Assembly (NCBI RefSeq): GCF_988243305.1
Contig: NZ_OZ547136.1
DNA length: 64,000 nt
Strand: one strand, 5' to 3'
Below, one piece after another: positions 6,116 through 40,378 of this stretch (positions are counted from its first letter, which is position 1; every line of letters begins with the position of its first letter). Below the pieces are notes generated by a model. That model saw only the letters and a list, made by a program, of their open reading frames with translations, ran no database searches and was not told the origin of the DNA. The position numbers were made by a program, and so were the translations under genes.

Positions 6116-6379
6116 TTAATTTGTTTTGTTTACGTAGTCCCTGACCAGGTACGCGAATTCGTGAACGCCAGTTTCACCAAACCAAATCAGGTAACCAGGG
6201 TCGATGTTGTAATAGTAACCAACGACTTTATGCGTTTTTGGGTTATAGAGTGTTACGATATAGTCCCAGCCGCAGGCGTGGGCTTTACAACCGCCACCTT
6301 CTACCCAGGTCGTTCCGTTAATGTTTACAGGATACGCACCACCATCAGGACCATCCATATAGCCGTCTTCCCCAAACAT
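6116..6379 (-). pseudogene. Possible C-terminal remnant of a gene truncated by IS1
   Basis: 87-aa ORF whose upstream side runs into the IS1 end at 6547; no credible start. Confidence 0.25.
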
Positions 6380-6561
6380 TCCGTTTAACCCAACAGGGTT
6401 TAATGCTTTGTCGATAGCAGCTCTGTAGGTAGCGTCACCTTCGTATAACTCGTACGTTGTTGGACATGCACCAGGCTGGTCAGCCCGGGCTTTTGAGTCG
6501 CATTTAAGTGTCTGATTTACAGTGGCGGCGTTTGTGTCAGGACTTAGGTAATGACTCCAAC

Positions 6562-7065
6562 TTATTGATAGTGTTTTATGTTCAGATAATGCCCGATGAC
6601 TTTGTCATGCAGCTCCACCGATTTTGAGAACGACAGCGACTTCCGTCCCAGCCGTGCCAGGTGCTGCCTCAGATTCAGGTTATGCCGCTCAATTCGCTGC
6701 GTATATCGCTTGCTGATTACGTGCAGCTTTCCCTTCAGGCGGGATTCATACAGCGGCCAGCCATCCGCCATCCATATCACCACGTCAAAGGGTGACAGCA
6801 GGCTCATAAGACGCCCCAGCGTCGCCATAGTGCGTTCACCGAATACGTGCGCAACAACCGTCTTCCGGAGCCTGTCATACGCGTAAAACAGCCAGCGCTG
6901 GCGCGATTTAGCCCCGACATAGCCCCACTGTTCGTCCATTTCCGCGCAGACGATGACGTCACTGCCCGGCTGTATGCGCGAGGTTACCGACTGCGGCCTG
7001 AGTTTTTTAAGTGACGTAAAATCGTGTTGAGGCCAACGCCCATAATGCGGGCTGTTGCCCGGCAT
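6562..7065 (-). CDS. insB: IS1 InsB (expressed as InsAB' by frameshift)
   Basis: 167-aa IS1 transposase ORF overlapping insA. Confidence 0.9.
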
Positions 7066-7259
7066 CCAACGCCATTCATGGCCATATCAATGATTTTCTG
7101 GTGCGTACCGGGTTGAGAAGCGGTGTAAGTGAACTGCAGTTGCCATGTTTTACGGCAGTGAGAGCAGAGATAGCGCTGATGTCCGGCGGTGCTTTTGCCG
7201 TTACGCACCACCCCGTCAGTAGCTGAACAGGAGGGACAGCTGATAGAAACAGAAGCCAC
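6984..7259 (-). CDS. insA: IS1 InsA
   Basis: 91 aa, [23 protein letters not shown]… zinc-finger/HTH InsA. Confidence 0.9.
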
Positions 7260-7425
7260 TGGAGCACTTCAAAAACGCCATCATACACTAAATCAGTAAG
7301 TTGGCAGCATCACCTAAGTGCTTTTACGATGAATTTCATGATAACTCTCCTTATGACATTAATAAATGCGTTAATCTTAAATCTCACCCAGGTAATATAT
7401 ATCTGAAAATATTTTCAACAACACC

Positions 7426-7450
7426 AGACAGGAAAAACACCACCACAGGC
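7426..7450 (-). terminator. Putative rho-independent terminator downstream of the patatin gene
   Basis: On the minus strand CCACC-N6-GGTGG stem followed by a T-rich tract, about 25 bp after the stop codon. Confidence 0.4.
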
Positions 7451-7473
7451 GGTGGCGTTTCTTTGGGGCGTCT

Positions 7474-8544
7474 TTATTTAATCCGGGCCATCGCGCTTCT
7501 CAGTGCCAAATCTGCCTCTTCCGTTATCTCCAGACTTTTCTGCAACACCGTTTCTGACCGGGACAGTGCCTGACGTGCTGCCAGCGGTTTCCGGATATGC
7601 TCCATCGTCAGCATCGTGTCCTCGTAGCCCTGCTGACGCCAGGCGTCGGTATGTGCCGACGTGAAACTGAGCAGACCGCCACTGTTGCCACCATCACCTG
7701 CATATTTCAGCCTTTTCCGGGGACGGATCTCAAGGATTGTGGTGTCCGGAAAAGCCTGGCGATCCCATAAAGAACCGTCACTCAGATGCGACACAATCAC
7801 CATATTGCATCCGGCATCGACCAGAGGCGTTACAGGGGTATTTCCCTGCATATTTCGCCATCCTCCCATACCACCATCACCGAACATTGTCCCCTGAACC
7901 TCACGGGGACGGAACAACAGGGGCAGTGCGGCTGACGCAAGCAGAGCCTCTTTCTGCTGTCCGCGGGGCAGACTCTGGATATGCTGAAAAACGGCGTTTT
8001 TCGTGGTTCCGGAACCCAGTTCAGCACGAATGCAGTCAATAATATCCTGCATGCCCCCTTCTGTGGGGTACAGCGACACATACAGCGGTAGCCCGTCTGC
8101 CAGAGCATCTGTATCAAGATAATGATCCATCAGCGCTGTCAGGGGCCCATCTGACAACAACGGCTGAGTCATCGGATTGTCGAAGCCGTTGATTATCGAT
8201 ATATGGCGAAGAAGTGTCGTAAGCAGTGCTCCTGCACGTCCGGGGATCTGGCAGAGGTTCATTGCCTGGAACAATTTTTTCAGCAATGAAAAGTAAACCG
8301 ATCGGTTTACCGACAGCACCTGATTATTCCCAAGATGATCCCAGAGCGCCTCCAGGCGTACGGCAGCTTCTGACAGATCGGGAGAGGCCGCGATAATGGC
8401 ACCATTGAATGCGCCAATGCTGGCCCCTGAAACCATGCTGATCTGTGTACCACACTCTGCCAGTGCCTTAACCACTCCCGCCTGATAAGCGCCCACCGCC
8501 CCACCGCCGGACAGCACCAGCCCTGTTTTTATTTCTATACTCAT
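7474..8544 (-). CDS. Patatin-like phospholipase (356 aa)
   Basis: GGGAVGAYQAG glycine-rich oxyanion motif, GASIGA (GxSxG) nucleophile, DGG catalytic Asp; start overlaps upstream stop (ATGA). Confidence 0.85.
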   Translation of the reverse strand: MSIEIKTGLVLSGGGAVGAYQAGVVKALAECGTQISMVSGASIGAFNGAIIAASPDLSEAAVRLEALWDHLGNNQVLSVNRSVYFSLLKKLFQAMNLCQIPGRAGALLTTLLRHISIINGFDNPMTQPLLSDGPLTALMDHYLDTDALADGLPLYVSLYPTEGGMQDIIDCIRAELGSGTTKNAVFQHIQSLPRGQQKEALLASAALPLLFRPREVQGTMFGDGGMGGWRNMQGNTPVTPLVDAGCNMVIVSHLSDGSLWDRQAFPDTTILEIRPRKRLKYAGDGGNSGGLLSFTSAHTDAWRQQGYEDTMLTMEHIRKPLAARQALSRSETVLQKSLEITEEADLALRSAMARIK

Positions 8545-9446
8545 GCAGCCCCCTTCTGAAATATTTCATCGACCATACTTTCAGAGAGGCGTTCTGCAGA
8601 GCAGAGACGGGGCATGCGAACCGGTAAGTGTTCTGCAGCCTGCGTGGTTGACCAGATCACCGGATGCTGCTCTTCACTGCACCAGTCCCCCAGCCAGTTA
8701 ATCGCGTCATGCCACTCGTTATCTGCCTGCTCCCGGCCCTGACCACCAAGCCAGTCCAGAGTGTTCAGACGCACGGTTGCACTACCGCCACTCTCCTGTG
8801 CCATCTGCGTTAATGCTTTATGTCTGAGAATATCCAGTAGCTGGTTAACCTGGCCTGTTTCGCCCTGACGTATCACATCACCAAACGCGCCCCAGCGAAG
8901 CTCTTCAAGTGCCACATAACAACGTCCGGCAGGGGAAAATGACGCATATCGCCCGGCGCTCCACCAGGAGAATATCTGCTCAAGATGTAACTGCGCCCGC
9001 TGAACCAGGTCAACACGGTGGAGTTTTTCTTCAAGATGATTCAGTTTCTGGTGAACCTGATCGGCCAGGGTGAGTAACTGCTCCCGCGTATCTGCGGAAT
9101 AATGCGCCAGCCTGGCAGTATCACTGACCAGTGAACTGACCCTGTCGTTTACCCGGGTAATCGCGTAGTTTGTGGTGGCAAGTGACGTTGTCAGCTCCGT
9201 CAGCCAGCGCAGGGACGCCTCAACGCCCTGTGCAAGCGAAGCATTGATGGCATTCTGCCGTGCAGCACCTTCGCCGCTCAGCCCCTCTTTTAACCGCCGG
9301 AAGAACGTGCGCTCTCCGGCCGTACGGATATGCTCCTGTGCAACATCAATACCGTTTGCGAAATCAACCACAAATTTTTCAGGAAGACAGGTGAGTACCT
9401 GACATACCCGGTTATCAGCAATTTGTTGAATAAATGGTGAAGTCAC
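8541..9446 (-). CDS. Hypothetical protein, partner of the dynamin-like GTPase (possibly YjcZ-like), 301 aa
   Basis: ORF overlapping both neighbours by 4 bp; no TM segments; YjcZ-like assignment is only by synteny with crfC(yjdA)-yjcZ. Confidence 0.6.
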   Translation of the reverse strand: MTSPFIQQIADNRVCQVLTCLPEKFVVDFANGIDVAQEHIRTAGERTFFRRLKEGLSGEGAARQNAINASLAQGVEASLRWLTELTTSLATTNYAITRVNDRVSSLVSDTARLAHYSADTREQLLTLADQVHQKLNHLEEKLHRVDLVQRAQLHLEQIFSWWSAGRYASFSPAGRCYVALEELRWGAFGDVIRQGETGQVNQLLDILRHKALTQMAQESGGSATVRLNTLDWLGGQGREQADNEWHDAINWLGDWCSEEQHPVIWSTTQAAEHLPVRMPRLCSAERLSESMVDEIFQKGAA

Positions 9447-11827
9447 AGCATTGTCTCCAGTTCTTCCCTTAACGCCTTACTGTCAGTAATGAGCTCAGGA
9501 ACCCTTTCATTTAACGCCTGAAGACGCCCGGTCAGCCGTTCCTGCGCCTGCTGATCGCGTTTATGATCTTCAGAGCTCTGAATCAGCGTGTTACGCAGCT
9601 GTTCAACTTTCTCCCTGAATGTACAGAAAAAGGCATCGATTTCCTGGCGGACGGGCTGGTTAATATCCTGCTCAATGGATGCCTGCAGCTCCCCGAAATA
9701 TGCCCGGGTCAGTGACATCACTTCCTCTCTGACCTTGTTGATATTGATCACGCTGCGGCTCACATCCACACTGTACTCTTTCCAGCCCCAGTCACTGGTG
9801 TTTGCCCATCGACAAAGCGTACCCCAGACACCATCCTGTCGACAGCGACGGGTTACTGTCTCCGTTCTTTCCTCCATAAGCGCGCTCAGATTTGTTTTTA
9901 CTGCGAGCCGGGTCTGTAACTGGCTGACTGCCGGAAAACTGATTTTTACAGTGAAACCTTCATCCTCCAGACGGGCATTGATGCGTCCGGCAATATTTTC
10001 TGTGGCGTACAGGGCCGTACCACGAAAACCTGTTTCAATACCCCTGACGATTTTTTCCAGTTCAGGACGGAACTGTGCTTCAGCCTCACGGTGCAGGCTG
10101 GTCACGGTCGATTCGATTTGCGTCATCAGTTCAAGGGCTTCCCTGCGATCACTGAATTTTATTTCGGGGCTGTCCGGATCAAAGTCCCGCATCCTGTCAT
10201 GCTGATTTCCGGTTCCGAAAATATCGTGAAAGAAAGCGAATGCGTTTCTCTCCCGGGGCTGCGCTGAATTTTCTTCCTCCAGCATTTGCTGTTCTTTGCG
10301 TTTACCGCTTCTGAAATAGTCATTCAGCTCCTCTTCCAGTGAGGTGCAGACCCCCGTCAGTAATTCCCGGGTTCTGGCATCGATCTCCTCCATGGCCATT
10401 CTGACATCAGCGGTCACCTGCTCCTGACAGTCCGCGATTTCCCGGATATCCGCAAGCAGGCTGGTGATATGCGACTGCAGTGACTGAATGCTTTGCTGTA
10501 GCCCCTGATGGCGTAATGACAGATATTCGCTGACATTTTCCGCATTCTGCATCAGTTTTGCGGCGGCAGAATCAACCGCCAGTGCCGCCGCTCTGGAATG
10601 GGAGCTCTGTATGACTTCCGTTATCAGTTGATCGATAAGTGAGCCTTCCCACAGGTCTGTCGCCCCTTCGGTTGCCATTTCACTGTCTTTACAGACGTAT
10701 TCTTTTTTCATGCGACCGAAGGCTTCCCTGACAAAATCATCGACCCAGGCTTCATCAACAGGAAGGGTTCTGTTTTTCCGTAACTCATGAAGCGCACGGT
10801 TAGCCAGGTACGCCTGACGTGATGAGCCTGGATAAACGCGGGAGGCGGGCAGCACATCGCTGTTCAGCATTGCCGGAACTTTCTGGCGTACGGCATCTGC
10901 CCCATCGCCATTGCGGTCTTTCTCATCAAATTTATTGACCAGCACAAACAGGCGGCCAGCTGATACGTCAGCAATGGCATTAAGCTCTTTACGGACGTCT
11001 TCATCCGCTTTTGAGTTCATCTGGGTGTAATCCATCACCGCCAGCACCGCAGAGGCTTTCTGCAGTTGATCCCGCATCATCACTTCCATCTGCGGTTGTC
11101 CGGCCTCATTAGGGCCGGGGGTATCCAGCAGTGTGAGTGTTCCCTGGCATGGATCCATCCCCACCAGATGGCTGAATTCCACGTCGATCACCGGCAGTTT
11201 CTGCACTTCTGCGTATTCATCAAAAGGAAACTCACTCCCCATTGCCGCAGCAAGGCGAACCAGATCGTTTAACGATGCCAGTCCGGTAAAAATTTCCTCC
11301 TCCCCGTGGTATTCATTTTTGAGCCAGCCATCATTTGCCAGAATATCCAGCAGTTCGCAGGTATCCCCGGTTTGCTGCAGGGTCTGTGCGACTTGCTGTC
11401 CTGCCGGGGTGTCGAGTTTTTGTTTCAGTGTGCTTAATAAATTGCGGACGGGCTGAATATGTTCCAGATGGAGGACCGGCTCAGTTTTTCCGGGAACGTG
11501 GCGGATGAGCGTCGGTACAGAGGTCATGGGGCGGTTACGGTTAGGCAGAATTTCCTGCCCCACAATGGCGTTGATGGTGGTTGATTTACCTGCTTTCATC
11601 GTGCCGACAACAGCCAGCACCATCTCCCTGCGGGCGGTTTTGATTTGTTCGCCCTCCAGCTCCTCAATTCTTTTCAGTGCTTTCTGTTTATCAAAAAGCA
11701 GTCTGTTTTCGTTCTTACTGTCAGATAACACATCCGGCTCATCAACCATTTGCCGGAGCAGATTAATGTTCAGTTGCAAAAGTCGGTCGGCTTCATCACA
11801 AAGCAGGGCGATGTTCTTTTCGTGCAT
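9443..11827 (-). CDS. Dynamin-family GTPase, CrfC/YjdA-like bacterial dynamin-like protein (794 aa)
   Basis: G1 GTMKAGKST, G3 DTPG, G4 NKFD; N-terminal GTPase region resembles E. coli CrfC as recalled; long coiled-coil-rich C-terminus. Confidence 0.85.
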   Translation of the reverse strand: MHEKNIALLCDEADRLLQLNINLLRQMVDEPDVLSDSKNENRLLFDKQKALKRIEELEGEQIKTARREMVLAVVGTMKAGKSTTINAIVGQEILPNRNRPMTSVPTLIRHVPGKTEPVLHLEHIQPVRNLLSTLKQKLDTPAGQQVAQTLQQTGDTCELLDILANDGWLKNEYHGEEEIFTGLASLNDLVRLAAAMGSEFPFDEYAEVQKLPVIDVEFSHLVGMDPCQGTLTLLDTPGPNEAGQPQMEVMMRDQLQKASAVLAVMDYTQMNSKADEDVRKELNAIADVSAGRLFVLVNKFDEKDRNGDGADAVRQKVPAMLNSDVLPASRVYPGSSRQAYLANRALHELRKNRTLPVDEAWVDDFVREAFGRMKKEYVCKDSEMATEGATDLWEGSLIDQLITEVIQSSHSRAAALAVDSAAAKLMQNAENVSEYLSLRHQGLQQSIQSLQSHITSLLADIREIADCQEQVTADVRMAMEEIDARTRELLTGVCTSLEEELNDYFRSGKRKEQQMLEEENSAQPRERNAFAFFHDIFGTGNQHDRMRDFDPDSPEIKFSDRREALELMTQIESTVTSLHREAEAQFRPELEKIVRGIETGFRGTALYATENIAGRINARLEDEGFTVKISFPAVSQLQTRLAVKTNLSALMEERTETVTRRCRQDGVWGTLCRWANTSDWGWKEYSVDVSRSVININKVREEVMSLTRAYFGELQASIEQDINQPVRQEIDAFFCTFREKVEQLRNTLIQSSEDHKRDQQAQERLTGRLQALNERVPELITDSKALREELETML

Positions 11828-11884
11828 TATTTAACCTTCCTGAGACGCATTTTCATGACAACCACGGAGGAGGTCATTTACTAC

Positions 11885-11910
11885 AAACGATCGTTTATAA
11901 CGATCGATAT
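11885..11910. promoter_or_regulatory. Palindromic operator-like motifs upstream of the dynamin operon (AAACGATCGTTT, CGATCGAT)
   Basis: Perfect 12-bp palindrome plus adjacent palindrome in the 199-bp gap between the GTPase stop and the dynamin start. Confidence 0.3.
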
Positions 11911-12026
11911 ACTCTATTAACTTGAGAAACACAACGCAAGGGGACAACCCGGGTATGGCTGCGTTTGCATAGTGTTTTCATGGAGTTAAAAATCTGTAAC
12001 AATAGCCTGGTACATCACCACCGGGT

Positions 12027-12899
12027 TCAGAAGAAAATCCAGTTCCATACCGCGCGGGCAACAGAGACCACCGAGTCACGGACGGCTCGCAGAACCGTAC
12101 GAGCCACAGAGGCAACACAGACGCTCTCCGCTGTGTCAAATATCCGGTCCACCGCACCGGTAAACTGTTCACGGGCCTGAGAGCGGACAGACTCCGTGCG
12201 CAGTTCGTCCTGCAGGCGGGTCATCAGGGGGCTGGCGGCATGGTCGGGAAGCGCTGTCATGAGCGCACTGACCAGCGTATCCAGTTCCCAGCCGGTGCAG
12301 GCCGATACGGCCACAACCGGATGTACGGGCCGGAACAGCCGGAATACCGCCTCCGTTTTCTCACGAATGTTCTGTGCCTGTGCGGGAGAAGGCTGAATGC
12401 CGGCCATATCCCATTCATGGCAGGGCTCCGTTTTGTCGGCCTGCGTCACCACAAACAGCACCTGCTGATGTCCCCGGTGCAGGATGTGTCGCCAGAAATA
12501 CTCATCCACAGACAGGGCACGGTCATCGGCTTTAATCAGCCACAGTACCAGGTCAAGTTCAGGCAGAATGTCACGGTACAGGGCTTCATACTCTGCATCC
12601 CTGTCCCGGCTCTCGCCCACCCCGGGCAGGTCAGTGATAATCATGCTGTGACCGTGGCCACTCAGACGGAAGCGCCGCACTTCCCGGGTGCCGGCGTGAA
12701 CATCACTGACCGGGGTGACCTCCCCCTGAAACAGCGCATTACAGAGTGAGGATTTACCGGCCCCGCTTTTACCCATAATGCCAATCACGGGTTCGTGACT
12801 GGTGAGTTTGCGCAGATGTTCCTGGATGTGACGGGAAAGTGAGTAAGGCAGGGAGGAGAGCGGTTTTTCAATTGCCTCAATGGCATCAGACGGATTCAT
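12027..12899 (-). CDS. YfjP/YeeP/YkfA-family GTPase
   Basis: P-loop GIMGKSGAGKSS and DLPG motifs; conserved CP4-type gene; start taken at MNPSDAIE. Confidence 0.8.
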   Translation of the reverse strand: MNPSDAIEAIEKPLSSLPYSLSRHIQEHLRKLTSHEPVIGIMGKSGAGKSSLCNALFQGEVTPVSDVHAGTREVRRFRLSGHGHSMIITDLPGVGESRDRDAEYEALYRDILPELDLVLWLIKADDRALSVDEYFWRHILHRGHQQVLFVVTQADKTEPCHEWDMAGIQPSPAQAQNIREKTEAVFRLFRPVHPVVAVSACTGWELDTLVSALMTALPDHAASPLMTRLQDELRTESVRSQAREQFTGAVDRIFDTAESVCVASVARTVLRAVRDSVVSVARAVWNWIFF

Positions 12900-12983
12900 A
12901 CATGTATTCCCGGTGAAAAAAGACAAAACCCCCGCACACCGGAAAGGTGGCGGGGGACTCACAGAGATAATATATGTCTGAAA

Positions 12984-13901
12984 TTATCTGGAATGTCGGT
13001 ACCTTTTATACTCTTCAACAATCAGGTCATGCAGCATTTCGCCGGTACTGAGTCTTCTGACCCTCGATAATTCTTTGAGCTGCGCCCTGGTTTCTGCGTC
13101 AAGAAAAAACTGTACATTGACTTTATCTTCCTGCATTTTTTTGTACTTGCGCTGCGCCTTGGCCTTATTGAAACTGTTTCTGAAATTTTTTATATCGTCA
13201 GGTGAGGTGAGTGTACAGGTAACCCATATGTCAAATGAAAGGTGAATTGCGTGGTAAATATCAGCAGAACCAGGAAAACTGGCCAGTTTTTCCAGTGCAA
13301 TATTTTTTCCCTTCAAATAATTCCATGTCCATATGCATTCATGTTCGTTCTCCGGGAGGAGGTAACTGAAAGGACTCTTTGATTTAAATGCCCGTATCCA
13401 TCTGTCTTTGGTCTGGATTATCCACTCATCCCGCAAATTCTTATCAGAAAGAATATCGAGAACTCTGAGTATTTGTCTGAACTGTGTCGATGAGTCCGAC
13501 GGGAAGGCATTCCCTTCTAAATACTCTTCTTTAAGATACAGTTTATTCTTTTGAAGCAAGTCTGCACTTATTTTTGCCCTGTTATTCTGGATAAACTGCA
13601 TCAACAGATACCAGGAAAATAAGCATGCGCGTTCACTGCCCGCGATCCAGGATATTTTTTCCAGGGGGACCAGGAAGGCCTGGGCCTTCAGACGCATACC
13701 AGAAATGATTTGTTCAAGTTCAAAATCTGAAAGTGTGATGTTCAGATTTTCTCTGTTTTTTTTTATGTAAGCGATAAAACGTTCCGGGGGATCATAAACA
13801 TTAAGGGGCAGTACGGAGATATTACGCTCTCCAAGATAATAAGAGTAATACGCATTTGTTCTTTCATTCATAACCTTATCCGACAAAATTTTCTGAACCA
13901 T
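12984..13901 (-). CDS. Hypothetical protein (305 aa), AT-rich, with C-terminal ribbon-helix-helix-like segment
   Basis: Long ORF with low-GC codon usage; C-terminus VQFFLDAETRAQLKELSRVRRLSTGEMLHDLIVEEY resembles CopG/Arc-type RHH. Confidence 0.55.
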   Translation of the reverse strand: MVQKILSDKVMNERTNAYYSYYLGERNISVLPLNVYDPPERFIAYIKKNRENLNITLSDFELEQIISGMRLKAQAFLVPLEKISWIAGSERACLFSWYLLMQFIQNNRAKISADLLQKNKLYLKEEYLEGNAFPSDSSTQFRQILRVLDILSDKNLRDEWIIQTKDRWIRAFKSKSPFSYLLPENEHECIWTWNYLKGKNIALEKLASFPGSADIYHAIHLSFDIWVTCTLTSPDDIKNFRNSFNKAKAQRKYKKMQEDKVNVQFFLDAETRAQLKELSRVRRLSTGEMLHDLIVEEYKRYRHSR

Positions 13902-22533: not shown

Positions 22534-23194
22534 AACAGGTGTCCACTAGTTGATGAAAAGGTGGGCACCTACGTTACCAATACTGGCTTAATGGCTACAT
22601 ACGGCGGTCAGTTTACGCTTACCATGTATCTGGCGAGTGAAGCTTTATGTCGTGTTCTGGCGTGTCCTGTGTTAGTTAGAACACGCCATCGATGGTCAGC
22701 AGGTTCATATTGCACCAGAGCGGATACAGCGTGGTGTTATGTCAGGGCTGCGCTGTTTACGTGAACACGTGGCGTATGGCCCCGCTTCCTGGCCGCTGCT
22801 GGGCATGGATCACGGCGCGACAAAGGGGCGACTACCTGGCAGCATGTGTCCAGCCGGTTCACAATCTGGTGAAGGTTCCTTACGCTCATGGGCCATACTG
22901 ATAATTCACCAGGCCATCATTTCCAGAGGAAGACGCCGTTTGCGTAGCGTGACAGTGTCGGACTCTTCAGGGCTGTGGGTAATCAGTTCCGGGGCAAGAT
23001 AGTCGCAGAGGGTTACGCAGAGAATAGTAACTGGACACTGGATCGATCAACCGATCCTTAACTGAGCGGCATGACAGCTTTCTGATGGTTTTTTTTTGAT
23101 AATCTTCACATTGTGCTTCTTTTCTGTTGGATAATCTTTGTACTTGATGGTGTACTAGGTATCCCATTATGCAGTTAAGTGAAGGTGATTAAAA

Positions 23195-24112
23195 ATGCAA
23201 TGTGAATTTAAAGGGGTCATATCAGCATTACCCACTCCTTATGACCAATCCCAGCAAACCGATATGGAGAGTCTTCGAAAACTGATCCGTTTTAATATCG
23301 AACAAAATATTAAGGGATTGTATGTTGGAGGCTCTACTGGAGAAGCATTTCTTCAGAATGTTGCAGAGCGAGAAAAAATTCTTGAAACAGTAGCCGATGA
23401 ATCAGATGGAAGACTGACACTTATAGCGCATGTGGGCGGAATCAGTACGGCAGAAAGCGAGGTACTTGCAAAAGCTGCAAAAAAATACGGATATCATGCT
23501 ATATCTGCTGTTACTCCATTTTATTATCCTTTTTCATTTGAAGAGCATTGTATCCATTACAGGAAGATTATTGATTCTGCAGATGGACTTCCGATGGTAG
23601 TTTATAATATACCGGCTCTTAGCGGAGTGCGTTTTTCTTTAGATCAGATAAATGAGCTTGTCACAATACCCAGGGTTTGTGCATTAAAACAGACATCCGG
23701 TGATTTATTCCAGATGGAACAAATCAAAAGGAATCATCCAGAGCTTGTGTTATATAATGGTTACGATGAAATATTTGCATCAGGGTTAATTGCAGGTGCA
23801 GATGGGGGAATCGGTAGTACATATAATATAATGGGGTGGCGTTATCTTGAAATATTTGAAGCAGTCAAAAACAATGATGTGATTAAGGCGAAGGAAATGC
23901 AAGTAGCCTGTAACCAGGTTATTGACACTCTTATTCAGAGTGGTGTCCTGGCAGGTATAAAAACTCTTCTTTACTATATGGGGATTATAAATACTCCTGT
24001 ATGCAGAAGTCCTTTTTCTCCGGTAAAGGAAAAGAATCTGGATGTATTATCAAAACTTGCAGAGCGACTGTTCGAAGAACATGACAGAAACAAAAAAATG
24101 AAAATAATCTGA
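23195..24112 (+). CDS. nanA: N-acetylneuraminate lyase (NanA paralog)
   Basis: High similarity to E. coli NanA across the full length (…[12 protein letters not shown]…[14 protein letters not shown]…). Confidence 0.9.
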
Positions 24113-24145
24113 ATAATTGCAAGATTGTTATATAGGTGAAAATGA

Positions 24146-25021
24146 ATGATAACACTGGCTGTTGATATAGGAGGAACGAAAATTTCAGCGGCGTTGATAT
24201 CTGATGACGGTTCATTTTTGCTGAAAAAACAGATATCAACACCTCATGAAAGATGTCCTGACGAAATGACAGGGGCTTTACGTCTACTGGTTTCTGAAAT
24301 GAAGGGAACAGCGGAGCGATTTGCAGTAGCATCAACAGGGATTATTAATAATGGAGTATTGACAGCTCTGAATCCAGACAATCTTGGAGGGCTGAAAGAG
24401 TATCCTCTGAAAAATATAATGGAAGATATAACTGGTTTAAATGGAAGTGTGATAAATGATGCCCAGGCAGCCGCATGGGCAGAATATACAGTTTTGCCGA
24501 AAGAAATTTGTGATATGGTTTTTATAACCGTTTCTACGGGGGTTGGAGGGGGAATTGTAGTTAACAGAAAATTATTAACAGGTGTTTCTGGATTAGCCGG
24601 ACATGTTGGGCATATATTGTCCGGAGTAACGGATACAGAATGTGGATGTGGTCGTCGGGGATGCGTTGAAGCGGTTTCATCTGGTCGGGCCATCATGGGG
24701 GCAGCAAAAAATAAACTTGCAGGATATAGCACCAAATATATTTTTGAATTAGCGAGACAGGGATATAAGGAAGCAGAATTTTTGACAGAGCGTTCTGCCA
24801 GTACTATTGCTGAATTAATAGTAAGTTTAAAATTACTGCTTGATTGTCAGGTTGTTGTTGTCGGAGGAAGTGTTGGACTTGCTGATGGGTATGTTCAGAA
24901 AGTGTCGAAACATCTTTCCATATATTCTGAAATTTGTAATGTAATGCTGTTTCCGGCATATTTCAGAAGTGACTCTGGTCTTATTGGTGCAACTCTTTGG
25001 GACCGGGATTGTATTACTTAA
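24146..25021 (+). CDS. nanK: N-acetylmannosamine kinase (NanK-like, ROK family)
   Basis: ROK motifs, N-terminal DIGGTK, CGCGRRGC zinc site. Confidence 0.85.
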   Translation: MITLAVDIGGTKISAALISDDGSFLLKKQISTPHERCPDEMTGALRLLVSEMKGTAERFAVASTGIINNGVLTALNPDNLGGLKEYPLKNIMEDITGLNGSVINDAQAAAWAEYTVLPKEICDMVFITVSTGVGGGIVVNRKLLTGVSGLAGHVGHILSGVTDTECGCGRRGCVEAVSSGRAIMGAAKNKLAGYSTKYIFELARQGYKEAEFLTERSASTIAELIVSLKLLLDCQVVVVGGSVGLADGYVQKVSKHLSIYSEICNVMLFPAYFRSDSGLIGATLWDRDCIT

Positions 25022-25069
25022 AGTAATACTCCAGTGTATTATAAATCCGCTATTATTGTGAGGTTTAAT

Positions 25070-26536
25070 ATGGACTCCTGTATTCAGAAAAAGCAGGTTT
25101 GGTATAAGCATCTTTCACCCAGACAGTGGAAGATATTCGGTGCGGCATGGACAGGTTATTTACTTGATGGTTTTGATTTCGTTCTGATATCTCTGGTTCT
25201 TACAGAGGTTCAGCATGAATTCGGCTTGACGACAATAGAAGCGGCAAGCCTTATTTCCGCTGCTTTTATTTCTCGATGGTTTGGGGGGCTTGCTATTGGC
25301 GCTTTATCGGACAAGATGGGGCGCAGGATGGCAATGGTTTTAAGTATAGTGCTATTCTCTCTCGGAACCCTTGCCTGTGGTCTGGCTCCTGGATATGCAG
25401 TGATGTTTATTGCTCGCATTGTTATTGGGCTTGGTATGGCAGGTGAATATGGCTCAAGTGTAACATATGTTATCGAAAGCTGGCCTGTTCATCTCAGAAA
25501 CAAGGCAAGTGGTTTTTTAATTTCTGGATTTTCTATTGGGGGAGGTTTAGCTGCACAGGTTTATAGCATTGTAGTACCACTATGGGGCTGGCGTTCTCTT
25601 TTCTTTGTCGGCATGCTTCCAATATTATTTGCTTTTTATCTTCGCAAGAATCTTCCGGAGTCTGATGACTGGCAAAAAAGGCAACAAGAGAATAAACCCG
25701 TCAGAACAATGGTGGATATTCTGTACAGAGAAAAGAATAAATACATAAATATTCTTCTGTCTTGTATTGCATTTGCATGTCTATATGTTTGTTTTTCAGG
25801 CGTCACTGCAAACGCTGCTTTAATCACAGTTATGGCATTGTGCTGTGCGGCTGTTTTTATCAGTTTTATATATCAGGGTATGGGGAAAAGATGGCCAACA
25901 GGCATTATGTTGATGCTTGTGGTTATGTTCTGTTTCCTCTACGGATGGCCACTGCAGGCTTTTCTTCCTACATGGCTTAAGGTTGATATGCAGTATTCAC
26001 CAGAAACTGTTGCTCTCATATTTATGCTGGCAGGTTTTGGCTCTGCAGCTGGAAGTTGTATAGGTGGTTTTATGGGGGACTGGCTTGGAACCCGAAAAGC
26101 ATATGTTATATCACTTCTTATCGGTCAGCTTGTTATTATCCCCGTTTTTCTTGTGGACCGGGACTATGTATGGTTACTTGGCCTTCTAATCTTTACTCAG
26201 CAGGTTTTTGGTCAGGGGATTGGTGCTCTGGTGCCGAAAATAATCAGTGGTTATTTTAATGTGGAGCAGCGTGCGGCAGGACTGGGGTTTATTTATAATG
26301 TAGGTTCACTTGGTGGAGCATGTGCGCCTATTCTTGGTGCAGTTGTTGCGTCTCATACAAGTCTTGGTACAGCAATGTGTTCTCTTGCTTTTATCTTAAC
26401 ATTTGTTGTTCTTGTCCTTATTGGTTTTGATATGCCATCACGTGTACAGAGATGGATCCATCCAGAAGCTGCGCTTGAATATGATACTGTCGATGGAAAA
26501 CCTTTTTATGGAGCAAGAAAAAAGAATGTTGCATAA
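25070..26536 (+). CDS. nanT: Sialic acid MFS transporter (NanT paralog)
   Basis: Strong similarity to NanT throughout (…[12 protein letters not shown]…GEYGSS…TYVIESWP…). Confidence 0.9.
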
Positions 26537-26545
26537 GAATAACGG

Positions 26546-27376
26546 ATGCTATCAGGGAATAAAAAAATGATTCATTACAGGGAGAATATATATTCTCTTG
26601 ATAATTATGAGCGTTATATAACTGACAGTTCGCTATTTGAGAATACTGGCGATGGCATAATATATACAGGTATTGTGCCCCTTATTACAGTTGTTGAGCC
26701 TGTTGTATCTAATCAACATAGTGTGCTGATTATACCTGGAGGTGGATACAGGAGGATTGTTTATGAAAGAGAGGGACTTGATGTTGGCAGATGGATAGCA
26801 GGTCAGGGATATACGGCATTTATTCTTTCTTACAGAATGCCCTCCGTTAATGGTTATTATTCCTTTGCAGATGCGAAGAATGCCCTGAACTTTATTTCTT
26901 ACTGGGCCGGAATGTCGGAGAGAACATTTAAGAGTGTTGGATGTATGGGGTTTTCGGCAGGTGGTCATCTTGCTGGATATATTACTCATCTCCATTATGA
27001 GGAAGAGACTTCTGTGCGTCCTGACTGGATGGCTCTGATATATCCAGTTATATCTCTTGACAGGAGTATTGCTCATCAGGGATGCCGGAAACGTCTTCTG
27101 GATGCAGGTGAAAGTGAATATTCAGCCAGTCTTGAAAATAGTGTTACAGAGTATATGCCACCAGTCTTTATTGTGCATGCAACAGATGATAAGGATGTTC
27201 CAGTTATTCATTCTCTGAGATATTTTAACTCTATTCGGGATAAGGGACATCATGCAGAAGCTCATTTTTTTGATAAGGGAGGTCATGGATTTGGTGTATC
27301 CGGAAAAAATGGATATCCGATAGAAAAATGGCAAAGCCTGCTTCTGGAATGGCTTGCGGAACATAAGTTTTATTGA
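26546..27376 (+). CDS. Alpha/beta-hydrolase esterase (putative sialate O-acetylesterase), copy 1
   Basis: GFSAGG (GxSxG) and HGF motifs; nan-cluster context; start may be the internal Met at 26567. Confidence 0.65.
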   Translation: MLSGNKKMIHYRENIYSLDNYERYITDSSLFENTGDGIIYTGIVPLITVVEPVVSNQHSVLIIPGGGYRRIVYEREGLDVGRWIAGQGYTAFILSYRMPSVNGYYSFADAKNALNFISYWAGMSERTFKSVGCMGFSAGGHLAGYITHLHYEEETSVRPDWMALIYPVISLDRSIAHQGCRKRLLDAGESEYSASLENSVTEYMPPVFIVHATDDKDVPVIHSLRYFNSIRDKGHHAEAHFFDKGGHGFGVSGKNGYPIEKWQSLLLEWLAEHKFY

Positions 27377-27421
27377 GAAATCAAATTACAAGTGATAAAT
27401 ATATTTAATGATGAGGCATTT

Positions 27422-28132
27422 ATGAAAAAATATTATCCACTATTAACTGTAATTCTTCTTGGTTTACCTTTGTGCTCTCAGGCATTAACTCTTAATCTAC
27501 GTGGGGGATACAGAAGCGCCAGTCACGCTTATGAAACGTTGATTCAGGTTAGTCAGGGGTGGAATAATGGTTGGTGGGCAAGTTTTGAGTCAAACACCTG
27601 GAATACAATTCACAACAATGAAAATGAATTGTTTGCACTCAATTATAATAAAATAGATATAAATAAAACATATAAAATAGATGACAAATGGGCTCTAATC
27701 CCAGGGATTCAGACACAATGGATGTCAGCAGGAAGTCAGTATAACCCTTATCTGAAAATTTCGTATCAGGCAACGCCAGATCTTAATCTGGCCTTACGCT
27801 ATCGCTATGACTGGAAAGCTTTCCGACAGACGGATTTAGATGGCAACAGGGCGCGTAATGATCAGCATCAGTTTGATGGTTATGTGACATACAAAATTAA
27901 TGATTCATGGTTGTTTGCATGGCAGACCACGGTATATACGAAGGTTAATAATTTCAAATATGGGAATCATAAAAAAACAGCAACTGAAAATGCATTTGTT
28001 CTGCAATATAAAATGTCACCGGTGTTCACCCCATATATAGAATATGATTACTTGGATAAACAAGGGGTGTATAAGGGGAAAGATAATAAACATGAAAATA
28101 GTTACCGTGTCGGTGTTCTGATTAATTTTTAA
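27422..28132 (+). CDS. KdgM/NanC-family outer-membrane porin
   Basis: Signal peptide MKKYYPLLTVILLGLPLCSQA, Tyr-rich beta-barrel ending in F. Confidence 0.75.
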   Translation: MKKYYPLLTVILLGLPLCSQALTLNLRGGYRSASHAYETLIQVSQGWNNGWWASFESNTWNTIHNNENELFALNYNKIDINKTYKIDDKWALIPGIQTQWMSAGSQYNPYLKISYQATPDLNLALRYRYDWKAFRQTDLDGNRARNDQHQFDGYVTYKINDSWLFAWQTTVYTKVNNFKYGNHKKTATENAFVLQYKMSPVFTPYIEYDYLDKQGVYKGKDNKHENSYRVGVLINF

Positions 28133-28144
28133 AAGGTGATTACA

Positions 28145-29254
28145 ATGAAAGTGAAAAACTTTATATATCTTCCCTTCTGCTTGTTTATTGGAACGTCGGT
28201 AGCCGGAGCTTTACCGGAAATTCCTGAACCATTTAAATATGGTGTAGGAGGGATCGAGAATGGTAAAATATATATAGGACTGGGAAGTCTGGGAAATAAC
28301 TGGTATATGATAGATACAAACCAGAGTGAAAAAAAATGGACTAAGATAGCGCAATGGCCGACAGTTCCCAGAGAGCAGGCAACAGCTACTATTATTGATG
28401 GTAAGATCTATGTATTTGGAGGAATTGGAAAAGATAAAAGTGGAGTCATAACCTTACAAAAAGATGTCTATTCCTATGATATTGCTAAAGATAAATGGGA
28501 AAAATTGATGACCCGTCCCCCTGTATCTCTTGCCGGTCATGTTTCTTTTATCCATAATGGTCATGCGGTATCTACTGGTGGTGTAAATGAGAATATTTTT
28601 AATGGATACTTTTCAGATGTCGAGTTATCAAAAGGGAATTCCGCGCTGACAGAGAAAGTCAACAGGGATTATTTTAGTAAACCTGCTGATGATTATTTTT
28701 TAAATAATCATATAATTTCTTATGACCCGTCAAAAAACCAGTGGAAGAACCTGGGAACGACTCCATTTCCGGGAACTGCTGGTTCATCGGTGATTTTTGC
28801 AGAACAGCAAATTTATATACTGGGAGGGGAGAGAAAACCGGGGCTTCGTTCTGTTAGATCCTGGACGGGGGAGCTTTCGCATGATCGAATTAAATGGTTT
28901 GAACTTCCACCAGTAGCTTCACCCGAGGGGGTGTCAGGAGCATATGCCTCTGTTATTGATGGAAATATCTTTCTGGCCGGTGGTGCATATTTCCCGGGGG
29001 CGGCAGAAAAGTATAGCAATGGTGAATACTGGTCTCATAAAGGACTGGATAAAGCCTATTCAAAAGAGATATATCAGCTAATAAAAAATGACTGGAAAAA
29101 AGTTGGTTCTTTGCCGGAAGGACTTGCTTATGGTGTAAGCCTGCCCTGGCAGGGGGGGATGCTCATTCTGGGGGGGGAGAAAAAAGATGGTAAAGCTGTT
29201 TCAGATGTTATTTATCTGAAAAAAAATGACAAACAAATAAAGATTGTTAAATAA
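28145..29254 (+). CDS. nanM: N-acetylneuraminate mutarotase (NanM/YjhT-like, Kelch repeats)
   Basis: Signal peptide plus repeated Kelch-type (IYV/I F GG) blades. Confidence 0.8.
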   Translation: MKVKNFIYLPFCLFIGTSVAGALPEIPEPFKYGVGGIENGKIYIGLGSLGNNWYMIDTNQSEKKWTKIAQWPTVPREQATATIIDGKIYVFGGIGKDKSGVITLQKDVYSYDIAKDKWEKLMTRPPVSLAGHVSFIHNGHAVSTGGVNENIFNGYFSDVELSKGNSALTEKVNRDYFSKPADDYFLNNHIISYDPSKNQWKNLGTTPFPGTAGSSVIFAEQQIYILGGERKPGLRSVRSWTGELSHDRIKWFELPPVASPEGVSGAYASVIDGNIFLAGGAYFPGAAEKYSNGEYWSHKGLDKAYSKEIYQLIKNDWKKVGSLPEGLAYGVSLPWQGGMLILGGEKKDGKAVSDVIYLKKNDKQIKIVK

Positions 29255-29315
29255 CTGTAATGCAGGTGACTGTATTAGTTGTTCAGTCACCTGAGTTATT
29301 TTAATGGGGTTTATA

Positions 29316-30239
29316 ATGAATAAAGATAGATCTTTAAATGAAATGATGTTAAGCTTGTTTAATAAATCAACTATTGTTGACTTGTCAAGTGAGACAATAT
29401 CTGAGAGTAAATCTCTTTCAGGCCGTATTTATCAGGATCCTGAACATAACGGGGAATTTGAACTTGATCGTGTATTGACAGATATTTATGCTCCTCAGTT
29501 AATTATTTTTTTACCAGATAAACCAAATGGAACAGGAATATTGATTATTCCCGGGGGGGGCTACCAGGCTGTTATGTTAGATAAGGAAGGTACAGCTCTT
29601 GCTCCAGAGTTTTTATCTCAGGGCTATACATTATTTGTTCTTAGTTACAGATTACCATCGCCAGTTGAGGGAGAAAATATAAACAAAACTTTTATTGATG
29701 CAATATCTGCAATGCTTTATATTCGTAAGAATGCTGATAAATGGCATCTACAGCGTCATCGTATTGGTGTATTAGGATTTTCTGCTGGGGGGCATATCGC
29801 CTCAACGTTTGTGAATCAGATTTGTGATTTCAAACGTTCTTCTGACAGTAAAGAACAAGAGATTTTCGCTATTCCCGATTTTGTCGGGTTAATTTATCCT
29901 GTAATATCAATGAAAGATGATGTGACACATCCAGGCTCCAGGAAGCAATTACTGGGGGACAATAGTACCTCAGAAAATATAATACAATATAGTGCGGATC
30001 TTAATGTCACATCATGTTTTCCTCCTGTGTTTTTACTCCATTGTTGTGATGATGATCTTGTGTCAATTGAAAACAGTCTGCTCATGTACCGTGGCCTAAT
30101 AGAGAAAGGTGTTTCTGCTGAAATGCATCTCTATGAGAAAGGAGGGCATGGTTTTAGTATTCAGTGGGCCACAGATCTTCCTGTTGGAGGATGGATAAAA
30201 CTGTTTATGGACTGGATGTATTCTCATGGATTTAAATAA
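29316..30239 (+). CDS. Alpha/beta-hydrolase esterase, copy 2
   Basis: Paralog of 26546..27376 with the same GFSAGG and HGF motifs. Confidence 0.65.
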   Translation: MNKDRSLNEMMLSLFNKSTIVDLSSETISESKSLSGRIYQDPEHNGEFELDRVLTDIYAPQLIIFLPDKPNGTGILIIPGGGYQAVMLDKEGTALAPEFLSQGYTLFVLSYRLPSPVEGENINKTFIDAISAMLYIRKNADKWHLQRHRIGVLGFSAGGHIASTFVNQICDFKRSSDSKEQEIFAIPDFVGLIYPVISMKDDVTHPGSRKQLLGDNSTSENIIQYSADLNVTSCFPPVFLLHCCDDDLVSIENSLLMYRGLIEKGVSAEMHLYEKGGHGFSIQWATDLPVGGWIKLFMDWMYSHGFK

Positions 30240-30274
30240 TATTTATGGTGACTACCTGGTGAAGCGTCGAGTAA

Positions 30275-31009
30275 CTATGATGCTTCAATTCGTTTATAAA
30301 GGTGATTATACATTAGCTGTTCAGCTTTATCACAATCATGCTCTTTTATGGCCGTAAGTATTTCAATATGCTGCTGATGGGTTTTTTTGTTATTTTCATA
30401 TGTCATTTTATTCTTTTCCAGAGGTTTGGCCATTATCAGCCATTCAGAAAATGCTGAGTGTATTGTTTTTAATACTTTATTGTCAGGTATATCAGCAAGT
30501 ATACTATGAAATTCAATATCATATTGAGCATACACTTCGGGGGTTCTCAGTGAGTTATGATGGATACTGAGCACCTTCTCAAGCCTGTGAATATCCTCAG
30601 GCGTTGCATTTTTTGCTGCATATCTTACAAGGTTGGTTTCAAAAAAGATGCGTAGTCTTTCAAAATCCTTGATGCCATCAGCTGTAGATAAAAAATCTTT
30701 AACAATGCCTGATAACCCATTAATGATGGTTTCTGGTGATGGACGGCAGACACTGGCTTTTTCTCCCTTGTTATACCGGATTAGCCCTTTATGTCTGAGA
30801 GATGATAAAGCCTCTCTGACAGATGGTCTTCCAACGCCAAAGAATGCCATAAGTTCACGTTCAGAAGGCAGGTATTCACCTTCCCTTATCTCCTCCTGGC
30901 GGATCATTCTTTCAAGCTCTTCGGCAACGATTTCTGAAAGTTTTTTTGTAACAATGGGCTTTCTGGTCGTTGTTAGCCCGGGTAACACGGTTTTTTTGTT
31001 GTCGGACAT
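30275..31009 (-). CDS. GntR/FadR-family regulator (NanR-like)
   Basis: …LPSERELMAFFGVGRPSVREAL… and overall colinearity with NanR. Confidence 0.8.
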   Translation of the reverse strand: MSDNKKTVLPGLTTTRKPIVTKKLSEIVAEELERMIRQEEIREGEYLPSERELMAFFGVGRPSVREALSSLRHKGLIRYNKGEKASVCRPSPETIINGLSGIVKDFLSTADGIKDFERLRIFFETNLVRYAAKNATPEDIHRLEKVLSIHHNSLRTPEVYAQYDIEFHSILADIPDNKVLKTIHSAFSEWLIMAKPLEKNKMTYENNKKTHQQHIEILTAIKEHDCDKAEQLMYNHLYKRIEAS

Positions 31010-31105
31010 ATATTGATTTATATGGATTAGAGCAAATGAGTTTTTAATTTAACACTTTCTTTTAATAATGAAAATATTTAATTAAATCTATTATGTAAAG
31101 GGGGA

Positions 31106-32095: not shown

Positions 32096-32139
32096 ACTGA
32101 ACCGCCCCGGGTTTCCTGGAGAGTGTTTTATCTGTGAAC

Positions 32140-34882
<2,743 letters not shown>

Positions 34883-37425: not shown

Positions 37426-37502
37426 TGTAATGTCCTTTGAGTGTAACTATCTATCGCGACTCTTTTGGTCGCGATAGATCAATAAGTATTTAACGTAATT
37501 TA

Positions 37503-39098: not shown

Positions 39099-39161
39099 AA
39101 TTCTCCATGACGATGTCACATGGTGACACCGCCTGTAAGGGAAGAGGTTTTATCTTTAAAT

Positions 39162-40346: not shown

Positions 40347-40378
40347 GGTGTTCCTCCGTTATTATTTAAATTAGAAAA

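Follow-up and report, generated by a model that had tools for sequence, protein, structure and literature searches.

A conserved, mobile operon of a dynamin-like GTPase, an RdcB-family protein, and a patatin-like phospholipase as a candidate anti-phage module

RdcA (CrfC/YjdA) and RdcB (YjcZ) of Escherichia coli K-12 interact and switch on DgcE, a membrane diguanylate cyclase, by way of its MASE1 domain; this activation needs GTP hydrolysis (RdcA T103D is inactive, K82A active), and the pair acts in cyclic di-GMP (c-di-GMP) and biofilm control (PMC6510439). Dynamin-superfamily GTPases are also found in defense islands, as in Eleos (LeoA plus LeoBC, formerly "Dynamins"), whose P-loop is required for defense (Millman et al. 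2022, bioRxiv 10.1101/2022.05.11.491447). Bacillus subtilis DynA, a two-headed, fused housekeeping protein of the dynamin family that binds membranes, is implicated in phage resistance and delays phage lysis. Among patatin-fold phospholipases, CapV and CapE of the cyclic oligonucleotide-based antiphage signaling systems (CBASS) are cytoplasmic, stay inactive until a cyclic nucleotide signal arrives, and kill by membrane degradation. Legionella VipD is activated by Rab5. This secreted patatin lipase has been solved with that small host GTPase (PDB 4kyi title). Here we describe an operon that brings such components together: a dynamin-like GTPase, a YjcZ/RdcB-family protein, and a patatin-like phospholipase, encoded in a 64,000-nucleotide (nt) stretch of contig NZ_OZ547136.1 (RefSeq assembly GCF_988243305.1), which we call the window.

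All three open reading frames (ORFs) are intact and on the minus strand (Table 1), and in near-identical E. coli genomes the Prokaryotic Genome Annotation Pipeline (PGAP) predicts the same trio, annotated as "dynamin family protein," "diguanylate cyclase regulator RdcB family protein," and "patatin-like phospholipase family protein." An earlier note on this stretch, made from its letters alone, had described a 794-amino-acid (aa) dynamin with intact G1, G3, and G4 motifs, a 301-aa soluble protein in the position of YjcZ, and a 356-aa patatin with intact GxSxG and DGG motifs, and profile searches bore out all three assignments. Pfam Dynamin_N (PF00350) matches residues 71-299 of the first protein (E = 3e-18), which carries G1 (GTMKAGKS, 75-82), G2 (T102), G3 (DTPG, 235), and G4 (NKFD, 298), so that it falls within the dynamin superfamily; K81, T102, D235, N298, and D301 are invariant across 28 dynamin homologs. 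The 301-aa protein is matched over the entire length of PF13990 (YjcZ; model positions 1-272 of 272, E = 2.4e-71), and this match, together with its position directly downstream of an RdcA-type dynamin, places it in the YjcZ/RdcB family. That family is small; of 1.84 billion representative proteins, it supplies 332 clusters at 50% identity. An AlphaFold2 (AF2) model of the protein is all-alpha and soluble (predicted local distance difference test [pLDDT] 86.9, predicted template modeling [pTM] score 0.88), and its predicted fold found no significant match to a solved structure in a search of the PDB.

The third protein is a patatin-like phospholipase on the strength of its motifs and fold, its activity being a prediction from sequence and model. 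Pfam Patatin (PF01734) matches it with E = 2e-24, and it has an oxyanion motif GGGAVG (13), GASIG with Ser42, and DGG with Asp223; S42, D223, the oxyanion GGG, and the stretch DGGxGGWxxxQGNTP are invariant across 16 patatins of the subfamily. Foldseek neighbors are PlpD, CapV, CapE, VipD, plant patatin, and ExoU (E ~5e-8 to 1e-3), and the sequence neighbors likewise include PlpD, CapV, CapE, VipD, and ExoU. Many E. coli protein clusters consist of truncated patatins of ~200-260 aa, some named only "hypothetical protein" (e.g., in O157 and O104:H4 strains), which hints at frequent inactivation. We found no transmembrane (TM)-like segment in any of the three proteins, and likewise no secretion signal.

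The likeness to K-12 RdcA–RdcB is the closest that we found for the first two proteins. Both gene pairs encode the same two families in an identical order, and in each the stop codon of the first gene overlaps the start codon of the second; the dynamin is 33% identical to RdcA over 740 aa by BLASTP, and the RdcB-like protein is 31% identical to RdcB over nearly its full length. The G1-G4 residues are conserved, including K81 and T102, the counterparts of RdcA K82 and T103, and in both cases the pair is likely a GTPase-plus-adaptor switch acting on a third enzyme. The operon differs, however, in its third, coupled gene for a patatin and in its location on a mobile island rather than at the core locus between yjdM and proP, where the true rdcA/rdcB orthologs lie without a patatin gene; no link to DgcE is implied. 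Moreover, the NCBIfam CrfC model (NF007368 equivalog) aligns with the dynamin end to end but scores 560 bits against a cutoff of 1146 bits. This score, the 33% identity, and the location in a CP4-like island set the protein apart from RdcA/CrfC orthologs, and we take the dynamin and the RdcB-like protein to be paralogs of K-12 RdcA–RdcB rather than housekeeping copies. The earlier note had named, as an outcome that would overturn its reading, a dynamin that was the housekeeping crfC with the patatin adjacent by coincidence; this is ruled out by paralogy, by the non-core location, and by the linkage across phyla described below.

The description of the dynamin as a membrane-remodeling GTPase, also in that note, was an assumption for which we found no support. 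No 19-residue window of the protein exceeds a Kyte-Doolittle value of 1.2, and thus no hydrophobic paddle or TM segment was detected, and RdcA acts as an enzyme activator. By analogy, the RdcA precedent favors the logic of a switch plus an effector over membrane remodeling.

To place the operon phylogenetically, we scanned one genome per GTDB species with an alignment of the patatin subfamily, and gene order was then read with ORF-level phmmer searches. Among 31 loci with a patatin at least 33% identical to ours, 23 carry the dynamin, RdcB-like, and patatin genes colinearly and in that order, in four phyla, which extends the co-occurrence well beyond the window. In the Gammaproteobacteria, three-gene loci were found in E. 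albertii, Erwinia, Pantoea, Budvicia, Serratia, four Pseudomonas species, two Acinetobacter loci (a third has no dynamin gene but the other two), three Moraxella, Amphritea, and metagenome-assembled genomes (MAGs) of Oceanospirillaceae, Alcanivoracaceae, and Methylococcales; Aquaspirillum represents the Betaproteobacteria, Tolypothrix and Scytonema the Cyanobacteriota, Cytobacillus and Paenibacillus the Bacillota, and one Pontiellaceae MAG the Kiritimatiellota. Further three-gene loci occur in Pectobacterium, Vibrio vulnificus, Pseudomonas fluorescens, and metagenomes. In all, two loci lack the dynamin gene and retain the other two, and at one locus the patatin gene is split. For more distant patatins (<33% identity), the partners were present at 0 of 47 loci. 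Starting from the partner instead, the four YjcZ-family representatives sampled at random (26-35% identity) were all followed by this patatin.

The three proteins also appear to have changed together, in that their pairwise identities co-vary (r = 0.78-0.88), and overlapping or abutting gene junctions recur across many lineages. Chance is ruled out as an explanation for the three-gene arrangement because the ORFs are long, the hidden Markov model (HMM) matches are strong, and the order of the homologs is kept across phyla. Of 5,426 complete E. coli genomes, 2,441 (~45%) contain the operon with at least 80% of the query covered, in up to five places per genome. It was also found on 45 plasmids; conjugative IncF plasmids from Klebsiella, Enterobacter, and E. 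coli are among them, as well as a Nostoc plasmid. Together with CP4-like and other integrase-bearing islands, these plasmids make up its mobile settings. We considered a phage-encoded origin and rejected it, as the operon is absent from a phage collection of 50,697 records and the 2.9 million viral contigs of IMG/VR hold a single close, partial match. These data firmly establish a conserved, mobile three-component module in which the catalytic residues of both enzymes are constrained. Ratios of nonsynonymous to synonymous substitution (dN/dS) among close E. coli and E. albertii copies were 0.03-0.43 (the comparison of the dynamin with that of E. albertii was misaligned and is excluded), but these values rest on few substitutions and carry little weight.

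The only patatin-less two-gene members that we found are the core-genome rdcAB genes between yjdM and proP. In two unrooted neighbor-joining trees, one built from the dynamins and one from the RdcB-like proteins (200 bootstraps), the rdcAB clade is monophyletic in 200/200 replicates and nests within the three-gene clades of the Enterobacterales in both. All replicates (200/200) also unite it with some three-gene members in a group that leaves out those of the Bacillota, cyanobacterial, and Alcanivorax types, and Budvicia plus Serratia form its sister group in the dynamin tree (200/200). Because of this nesting and the narrow taxonomic range of rdcAB, the simplest reading is that rdcAB would descend from a three-gene ancestor through loss of the patatin gene. 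The nesting further suggests that the output enzyme may have been swapped in the rdcAB lineage, from the patatin to DgcE. Since rdcAB would be an offshoot of the three-gene family, the RdcA mutants K82A and T103D should translate to K81A and T102D here.

The operon does not belong to any of the defense systems that it resembles. PADLOC v2 has no model for it and returned only weak LeoBC and weak generic phospholipase matches, and in NCBIfam its proteins are named only at the level of the CrfC and RdcB families. Eleos has in common with it dynamin-superfamily GTPases in defense islands, but Eleos consists of two consecutive dynamins without a YjcZ protein or a lipase, whereas the operon has one dynamin, its partner, and a patatin. 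The LeoBC model gave a weak match to the G domain (E = 1.9e-5, no stretch passing alone) and LeoA gave none, so that membership in Eleos is ruled out by model scores and gene content. The same holds for CBASS: although CapV and CapE are fold neighbors of our patatin, the CBASS_lipase model scored 18 bits against a cutoff of 200 bits, the PADLOC phospholipase effector matched with E = 1e-4, and no CD-NTase or cyclic-nucleotide signaling gene was found in the operon or its immediate flanks. The CBASS effectors are triggered by a cyclic nucleotide, whereas the activator proposed here would be a protein GTPase pair. DynA has neither a partner protein nor a lipase, and its NCBIfam model matches our dynamin only at the P-loop (33 bits against a cutoff of 1600). 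VipD matches our patatin in sequence and fold; here, however, both partners are bacterial and encoded in one operon, with a large dynamin-type GTPase, and we regard the resemblance as a mechanistic analogy only.

The genomic surroundings of the operon are often those of immune genes. Of some 20 independent neighborhoods outside Escherichia, seven held known defense systems no more than ~6 kb away, a figure that describes a sample with few genes scanned per locus with PADLOC and is not an enrichment statistic. In Erwinia sp. S63, JukA and JukB (E = 2e-58 and 4e-112) begin 40 nt past the patatin gene, and an SNF2 helicase lies upstream. The Alcanivoracaceae MAG has type IIG restriction–modification upstream and Zorya II (ZorA2, ZorB2, ZorE) downstream, and Amphritea has Zorya II at the other side of the operon. 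The remaining cases are type I HsdR in P. matsuisoli, a type I restriction enzyme and a GajB-like helicase in Acinetobacter chengduensis, the bacteriophage exclusion (BREX) genes BrxL and PglZ in V. vulnificus, and BrxR, SIR2, an AAA ATPase, and an integrase in P. fluorescens. In E. coli MP1, EcoKI and Druantia are on the same islands as the operon (PMC12922286). On the sampled loci, the operon thus has the generic marks of a defense system, namely defense neighbors and a patchy, mobile distribution.

Two marine gammaproteobacterial loci, in which Zorya II adjoins the operon on opposite sides (L017:1549-16192 and L020:1406-20972), also encode nearby a giant protein of 2,134 or 2,162 aa, 72% identical between the two; the island is rearranged around the operon.

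A WYL-domain regulator is encoded upstream of the operon in seven lineages. WYL regulators such as BrxR and CapW typically govern defense systems. Five of those found here, each of ~300 aa and upstream of the operon in beta- or gammaproteobacteria, are homologs of one another with 38-62% mutual identity (Table 1), so that a specific WYL regulator travels with the operon. V. vulnificus and P. fluorescens have unrelated WYL or BrxR-type regulators instead, which suggests that WYL control was recruited repeatedly.

The earlier note had not recognized the three-gene combination as a described system. It had already been noticed in an RNA sequencing (RNA-seq) study of E. coli MP1, in which the dynamin/RdcB-like/phospholipase operon was the most up-regulated lysogen cluster, a cluster of five genes was co-induced, and the operon was labeled, as a proposal, a "putative dynamin phage defense system" (BMC Genomics 2026, PMC12922286). 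The literature searched under dynamin, patatin, YjcZ, RdcB, and defense terms yielded no functional study of the operon, which is uncharacterized rather than unseen; to call the combination undescribed would be too strong. Its proteins appear in databases under inconsistent names, among them "dGTPase," "CrfC," "chemotaxis protein," and "ferredoxin reductase." A study of olaquindox-exposed E. coli ATCC 25922 lists an implausibly large number of "mutations" in crfC (122), rssA (75), yeeP (10), and yjcZ (3) (PMC7696260). These names fit the island operon and its neighboring GTPase gene. Such numbers are probably due to mis-mapped reads or to recombination among paralogous copies of the island, not to selection.

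The reading that we favor, tentatively, is that the operon is a mobile, inducible abortive-infection module directed against phages or other mobile elements. The three soluble proteins, in the cytoplasm or at the membrane periphery, would be produced in fixed proportion through translational coupling. Because of their homology with RdcA–RdcB, which activate DgcE only on GTP hydrolysis, the GTPase and its partner may form a hydrolysis-dependent, nucleotide-state switch. A trigger, candidates for which are a phage protein, membrane perturbation, and a shrinking GTP pool, would make the switch release or activate the patatin, whose Ser42/Asp223 dyad would then hydrolyze inner-membrane phospholipids and so kill or arrest the infected cell. 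Abortive infection is favored because the nearest structural relatives of this dedicated patatin are gated killing effectors; by analogy, ligand-activated CapV and CapE and the VipD–Rab5 pair could serve as precedents for gated patatins. We infer the physical complex, the sensor and effector roles, the trigger, the lipid substrate, and the protection against phage. A membrane-targeting defense module had been the idea of the earlier note as well, and the self-contained unit and the frequent defense neighbors agree with it, but not its premise of membrane remodeling.

Several observations weigh against an abortive-infection role. The characterized relatives, RdcA and RdcB, have a regulatory role that is not immune. 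When the RdcB-like protein and the patatin were modeled by AF2 as a fusion through a linker (partly paired alignment, without predicted aligned error), the pTM was 0.65, compared with 0.88 for the RdcB-like protein alone and with the ~0.5 that we would roughly estimate for a pair of independent domains this large; in the fusion model, the RdcB-like part has its N-terminal half refolded into one long helix at lower confidence. About half of the sampled loci had no PADLOC match among the few neighbors tested at each, and a gene that served addiction, virulence, or competition would likewise acquire defense neighbors through its association with mobile islands. Despite its high frequency in E. 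coli, the operon is missing from PADLOC v2. To our knowledge, none of the published functional screens in E. coli reports it, and it may be without protection against standard coliphage panels, or hard to clone. The text of the DefensePredictor preprint does not mention the operon, and the searchable literature reports no experimental protection, toxicity, or lipase activity for it. Finally, the up-regulation in MP1 lysogens was constitutive rather than infection-triggered, and some counts were affected by multi-mapping reads (PMC12922286).

Other roles can be weighed against the same evidence. One, suggested in the MP1 study (PMC12922286), is a membrane-maintenance or "delayed lysis" defense in which the dynamin would seal or remodel the membrane in the manner of DynA, assisted by the patatin and the RdcB-like protein through lysolipids or regulation of the GTPase. 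The defense-island context fits this equally, as does membership in the dynamin family, whose members DynA and Eleos protect against phage, Eleos needing its P-loops (see also PMC12998192). We nevertheless think it unlikely: the dynamin has no detectable hydrophobic paddle or TM segment, its closest characterized relative is a regulator and not a remodeler, and the invariant catalytic residues of a dedicated patatin subfamily, with CapV, CapE, and ExoU as structural neighbors, fit a killing effector better than a helper. It is similarly improbable, in our view, that the operon serves the element that carries it or an interaction with a host, either as an addiction module in which the other two proteins restrain a toxic patatin or as a virulence or competition factor, by LeoABC-like vesicle release or as a lipase for host lipids. 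The absence of secretion signals and TM segments and of any linked secretion system speaks against export, virulence toward a host is unlikely in the free-living cyanobacteria, soil Bacillota, and marine bacteria that have the module, and WYL regulators and immediate defense neighbors point to immunity. On the other side, mobile islands and plasmids are the invariable setting of the operon, which is often flanked by insertion sequences (IS) and occurs in several copies per genome, the truncated patatins common in E. coli are what a costly gene would be expected to leave, and the operon lies on PAI-CFT073-aspV, described as important in colonization by uropathogenic E. coli (PMC12922286). Addiction and abortive infection are in any case compatible and not mutually exclusive.

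Physiological signaling of the RdcAB kind, in which the pair would sense GTP or growth state and the patatin would remodel lipids or make a lipid signal in biofilm or stationary phase, draws on the homology and identical gene order with rdcA-rdcB and on the function of that pair in c-di-GMP and biofilm control. The patchy, mobile, and multicopy distribution of the operon is not that of a core-genome function, however, its neighbors are defense genes and not metabolic ones, and the housekeeping-like core branch, rdcAB, is precisely the one without a patatin; we consider this role very unlikely. Returning to abortive infection, a more specific version, which we put forward as doubtful, is that the dynamin would be an immune nucleotide-state switch, not a remodeler of membranes, that licenses a suicide phospholipase with the help of a dedicated all-alpha adaptor, and that RdcA–RdcB–DgcE would be its domesticated descendant, with a diguanylate cyclase in place of the lipase.

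If that version were true, the operon would be the bacterial equivalent of lipases gated by GTPases and of immune dynamins such as Mx and GBP, and a very common defense system of E. coli (~45% of complete genomes) would have been hidden under the names "CrfC," "dGTPase," and "chemotaxis protein." As an anti-phage system, it would be among the most prevalent in E. coli, where it is often multicopy, and with its carriage by IncF plasmids of Klebsiella and Enterobacter it would have a bearing on phage therapy and plasmid ecology. Its parts, a patatin effector and a GTPase of the dynamin type known from immunity, are of known kinds, and the activation logic is possibly new: a lipase gated by a large GTPase plus an adaptor, compared with the cyclic nucleotides of known immune patatins. 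The role of K-12 RdcA/CrfC–RdcB has been debated between chromosome partition and c-di-GMP control, and that pair appears to be a patatin-less offshoot of the mobile family.

Within the window, both gene junctions are 4-bp overlaps, as the earlier note had it, although only the second, between the RdcB-like and patatin genes, is the ATGA that it gave for each (reading gcATGAgt); the first is GTGA (reading ctGTGAct), with a GTG start for the RdcB-like gene. The upstream gap and downstream hairpin that it had described are both present. The gap contains the perfect palindrome CGATCGTTATAAACGATCG (fold of -10.7 kcal/mol, z = -3.0), which could be an operator or a weak terminator for the upstream GTPase gene, and the hairpin folds at -19 kcal/mol (z = -3.9), a stability reached by none of 200 shuffled sequences. 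When window 11818-12040 is compared with its E. albertii counterpart (L003:6500-6730), the palindrome, of the form CGATCG…CGATCG, is seen to be shared, and it is shared only within Escherichia; in E. albertii, an 18-nt insertion brings an extra CGATCG half-site, a partial duplication of the palindrome. It is not conserved in other genera, where the upstream regions are unrelated. A scan of the 199-nt gap with the sigma-70 consensus gave no strong site, so that read-through from upstream may occur, and an Rfam scan of 7-15 kb of the window gave no RNA family. Given the lack of a strong promoter in the gap and the co-induced five-gene cluster of MP1, the operon may be co-transcribed with the YfjP-type GTPase gene in E. 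coli.

Table 1. Positions of the operon, its flanking features, and the related WYL regulators of other loci (window coordinates unless a locus is given)
Feature	Position	Strand	Description	Basis
Dynamin-like GTPase gene	9443-11827	-	794 aa	ORF and Dynamin_N profile match
YjcZ/RdcB-family partner gene	8541-9446	-	301 aa, GTG start	PF13990
Patatin-like phospholipase gene	7474-8544	-	356 aa	Patatin profile match
Upstream intergenic region	11828-12026	-	199 nt; palindrome CGATCGTTATAAACGATCG and ribosome-binding site AGGAAGG	
Perfect palindrome CGATCGTTATAAACGATCG	11888-11906		8-bp arms, in the upstream gap	Sequence scan and fold
Terminator-like hairpin and U-run	~7438-7460	-	14-20 nt past the patatin stop	Scan, fold
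YfjP/YeeP-type GTPase gene	12027-12962		Directly upstream of the intergenic region	
Orphan ORF	12984-13901	-	305 aa, ~40% GC (AT-rich), 21 nt upstream of the YfjP-type GTPase gene	
IS1 element	~6547-7314		Inverted repeat GGTGATGCTGCC… from 7314 on the minus strand; ~160 bp downstream of the patatin gene	
Truncated ORF beyond IS1	6116-6379		Annotated as N-terminally incomplete hypothetical protein	
Sialic-acid utilization cluster	~23000-32100		~39% GC; nan lyase, kinase, epimerase, esterase, and nanR in the matching genome	
Group II intron reverse transcriptase/maturase	32703-34226			
Sigma-54-type AAA+ activator	41974-43719		581 aa, RtcR/PspF-like AAA+ and helix-turn-helix part	
WYL regulators of one subfamily	L006:2950-3843, L011:373-1272, L012:3987-4889, L033:4182-5096, L093:702-1601			

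Some lineages have additional genes. In Acinetobacter chengduensis (L012:3987-11086) and A. rudis (L033:4182-11101), a five-gene variant consists of the WYL regulator, a truncated dynamin, the full dynamin, the RdcB-like protein, and the patatin. The extra, CrfC-like dynamin (531 or 491 aa) covers positions 18-486 of the CrfC model; this second dynamin recalls the paired dynamins of Eleos and DLP1/DLP2, and PADLOC did not recognize it. In Budvicia (L007:8957-9442) and Serratia oryzae (L008:11120-11605), a same-strand ORF of 161 aa, with no PADLOC match, begins 28-58 nt past the patatin stop and may be a lineage-specific fourth gene. Conversely, five Synergistaceae MAGs (L021, L024, L027, L029, and L031) encode shorter patatins of a sister clade (~320 aa, 35-40% identity) without the dynamin and RdcB-like genes. 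As for alternative sensor partners, the upstream gene in L031 encodes a housekeeping D-Ala-D-Ala carboxypeptidase and was rejected, and the neighbors of 1,648, 380, and 371 aa in L031, L029, and L027 match no NCBIfam family. These patatins look solitary, and the subfamily can evidently exist alone.

The operon of the window sits in the backbone of a CP4-like island, beside the YfjP-type GTPase and antirestriction genes that had been reported for it. Upstream are the YfjP/YeeP-type GTPase gene and the 305-aa orphan ORF, and the order downstream is IS1, DUF905, DUF932, antirestriction, RadC, DUF987, CbeA/CbtA, DUF5983, DUF957, and DUF4942. We considered the YfjP-type GTPase as a fourth component and rejected it as a general feature: it belongs to the island backbone, lies ~5 kb off in Pectobacterium, and is absent from most other loci. 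The 305-aa ORF has no Pfam, NCBIfam, or PADLOC match, and its C terminus (…RRLSTGEMLHDLIVEEYKRY) resembles by eye a ribbon-helix-helix DNA-binding motif. It could be a regulator or, because MP1 shows a co-induced five-gene cluster, the first gene of a five-gene unit.

Farther along the window, four unannotated minus-strand ORFs (36139-41593) beside the sigma-54-type activator gave no PADLOC matches. In the closest genome, BR1220, the operon is part of a large composite island by setC, with IS66 copies, the sialic-acid cluster, and the group II intron. On the other side of the operon, the IS1 insertion and the truncated ORF beyond it show that the original cargo of this island slot is disrupted.

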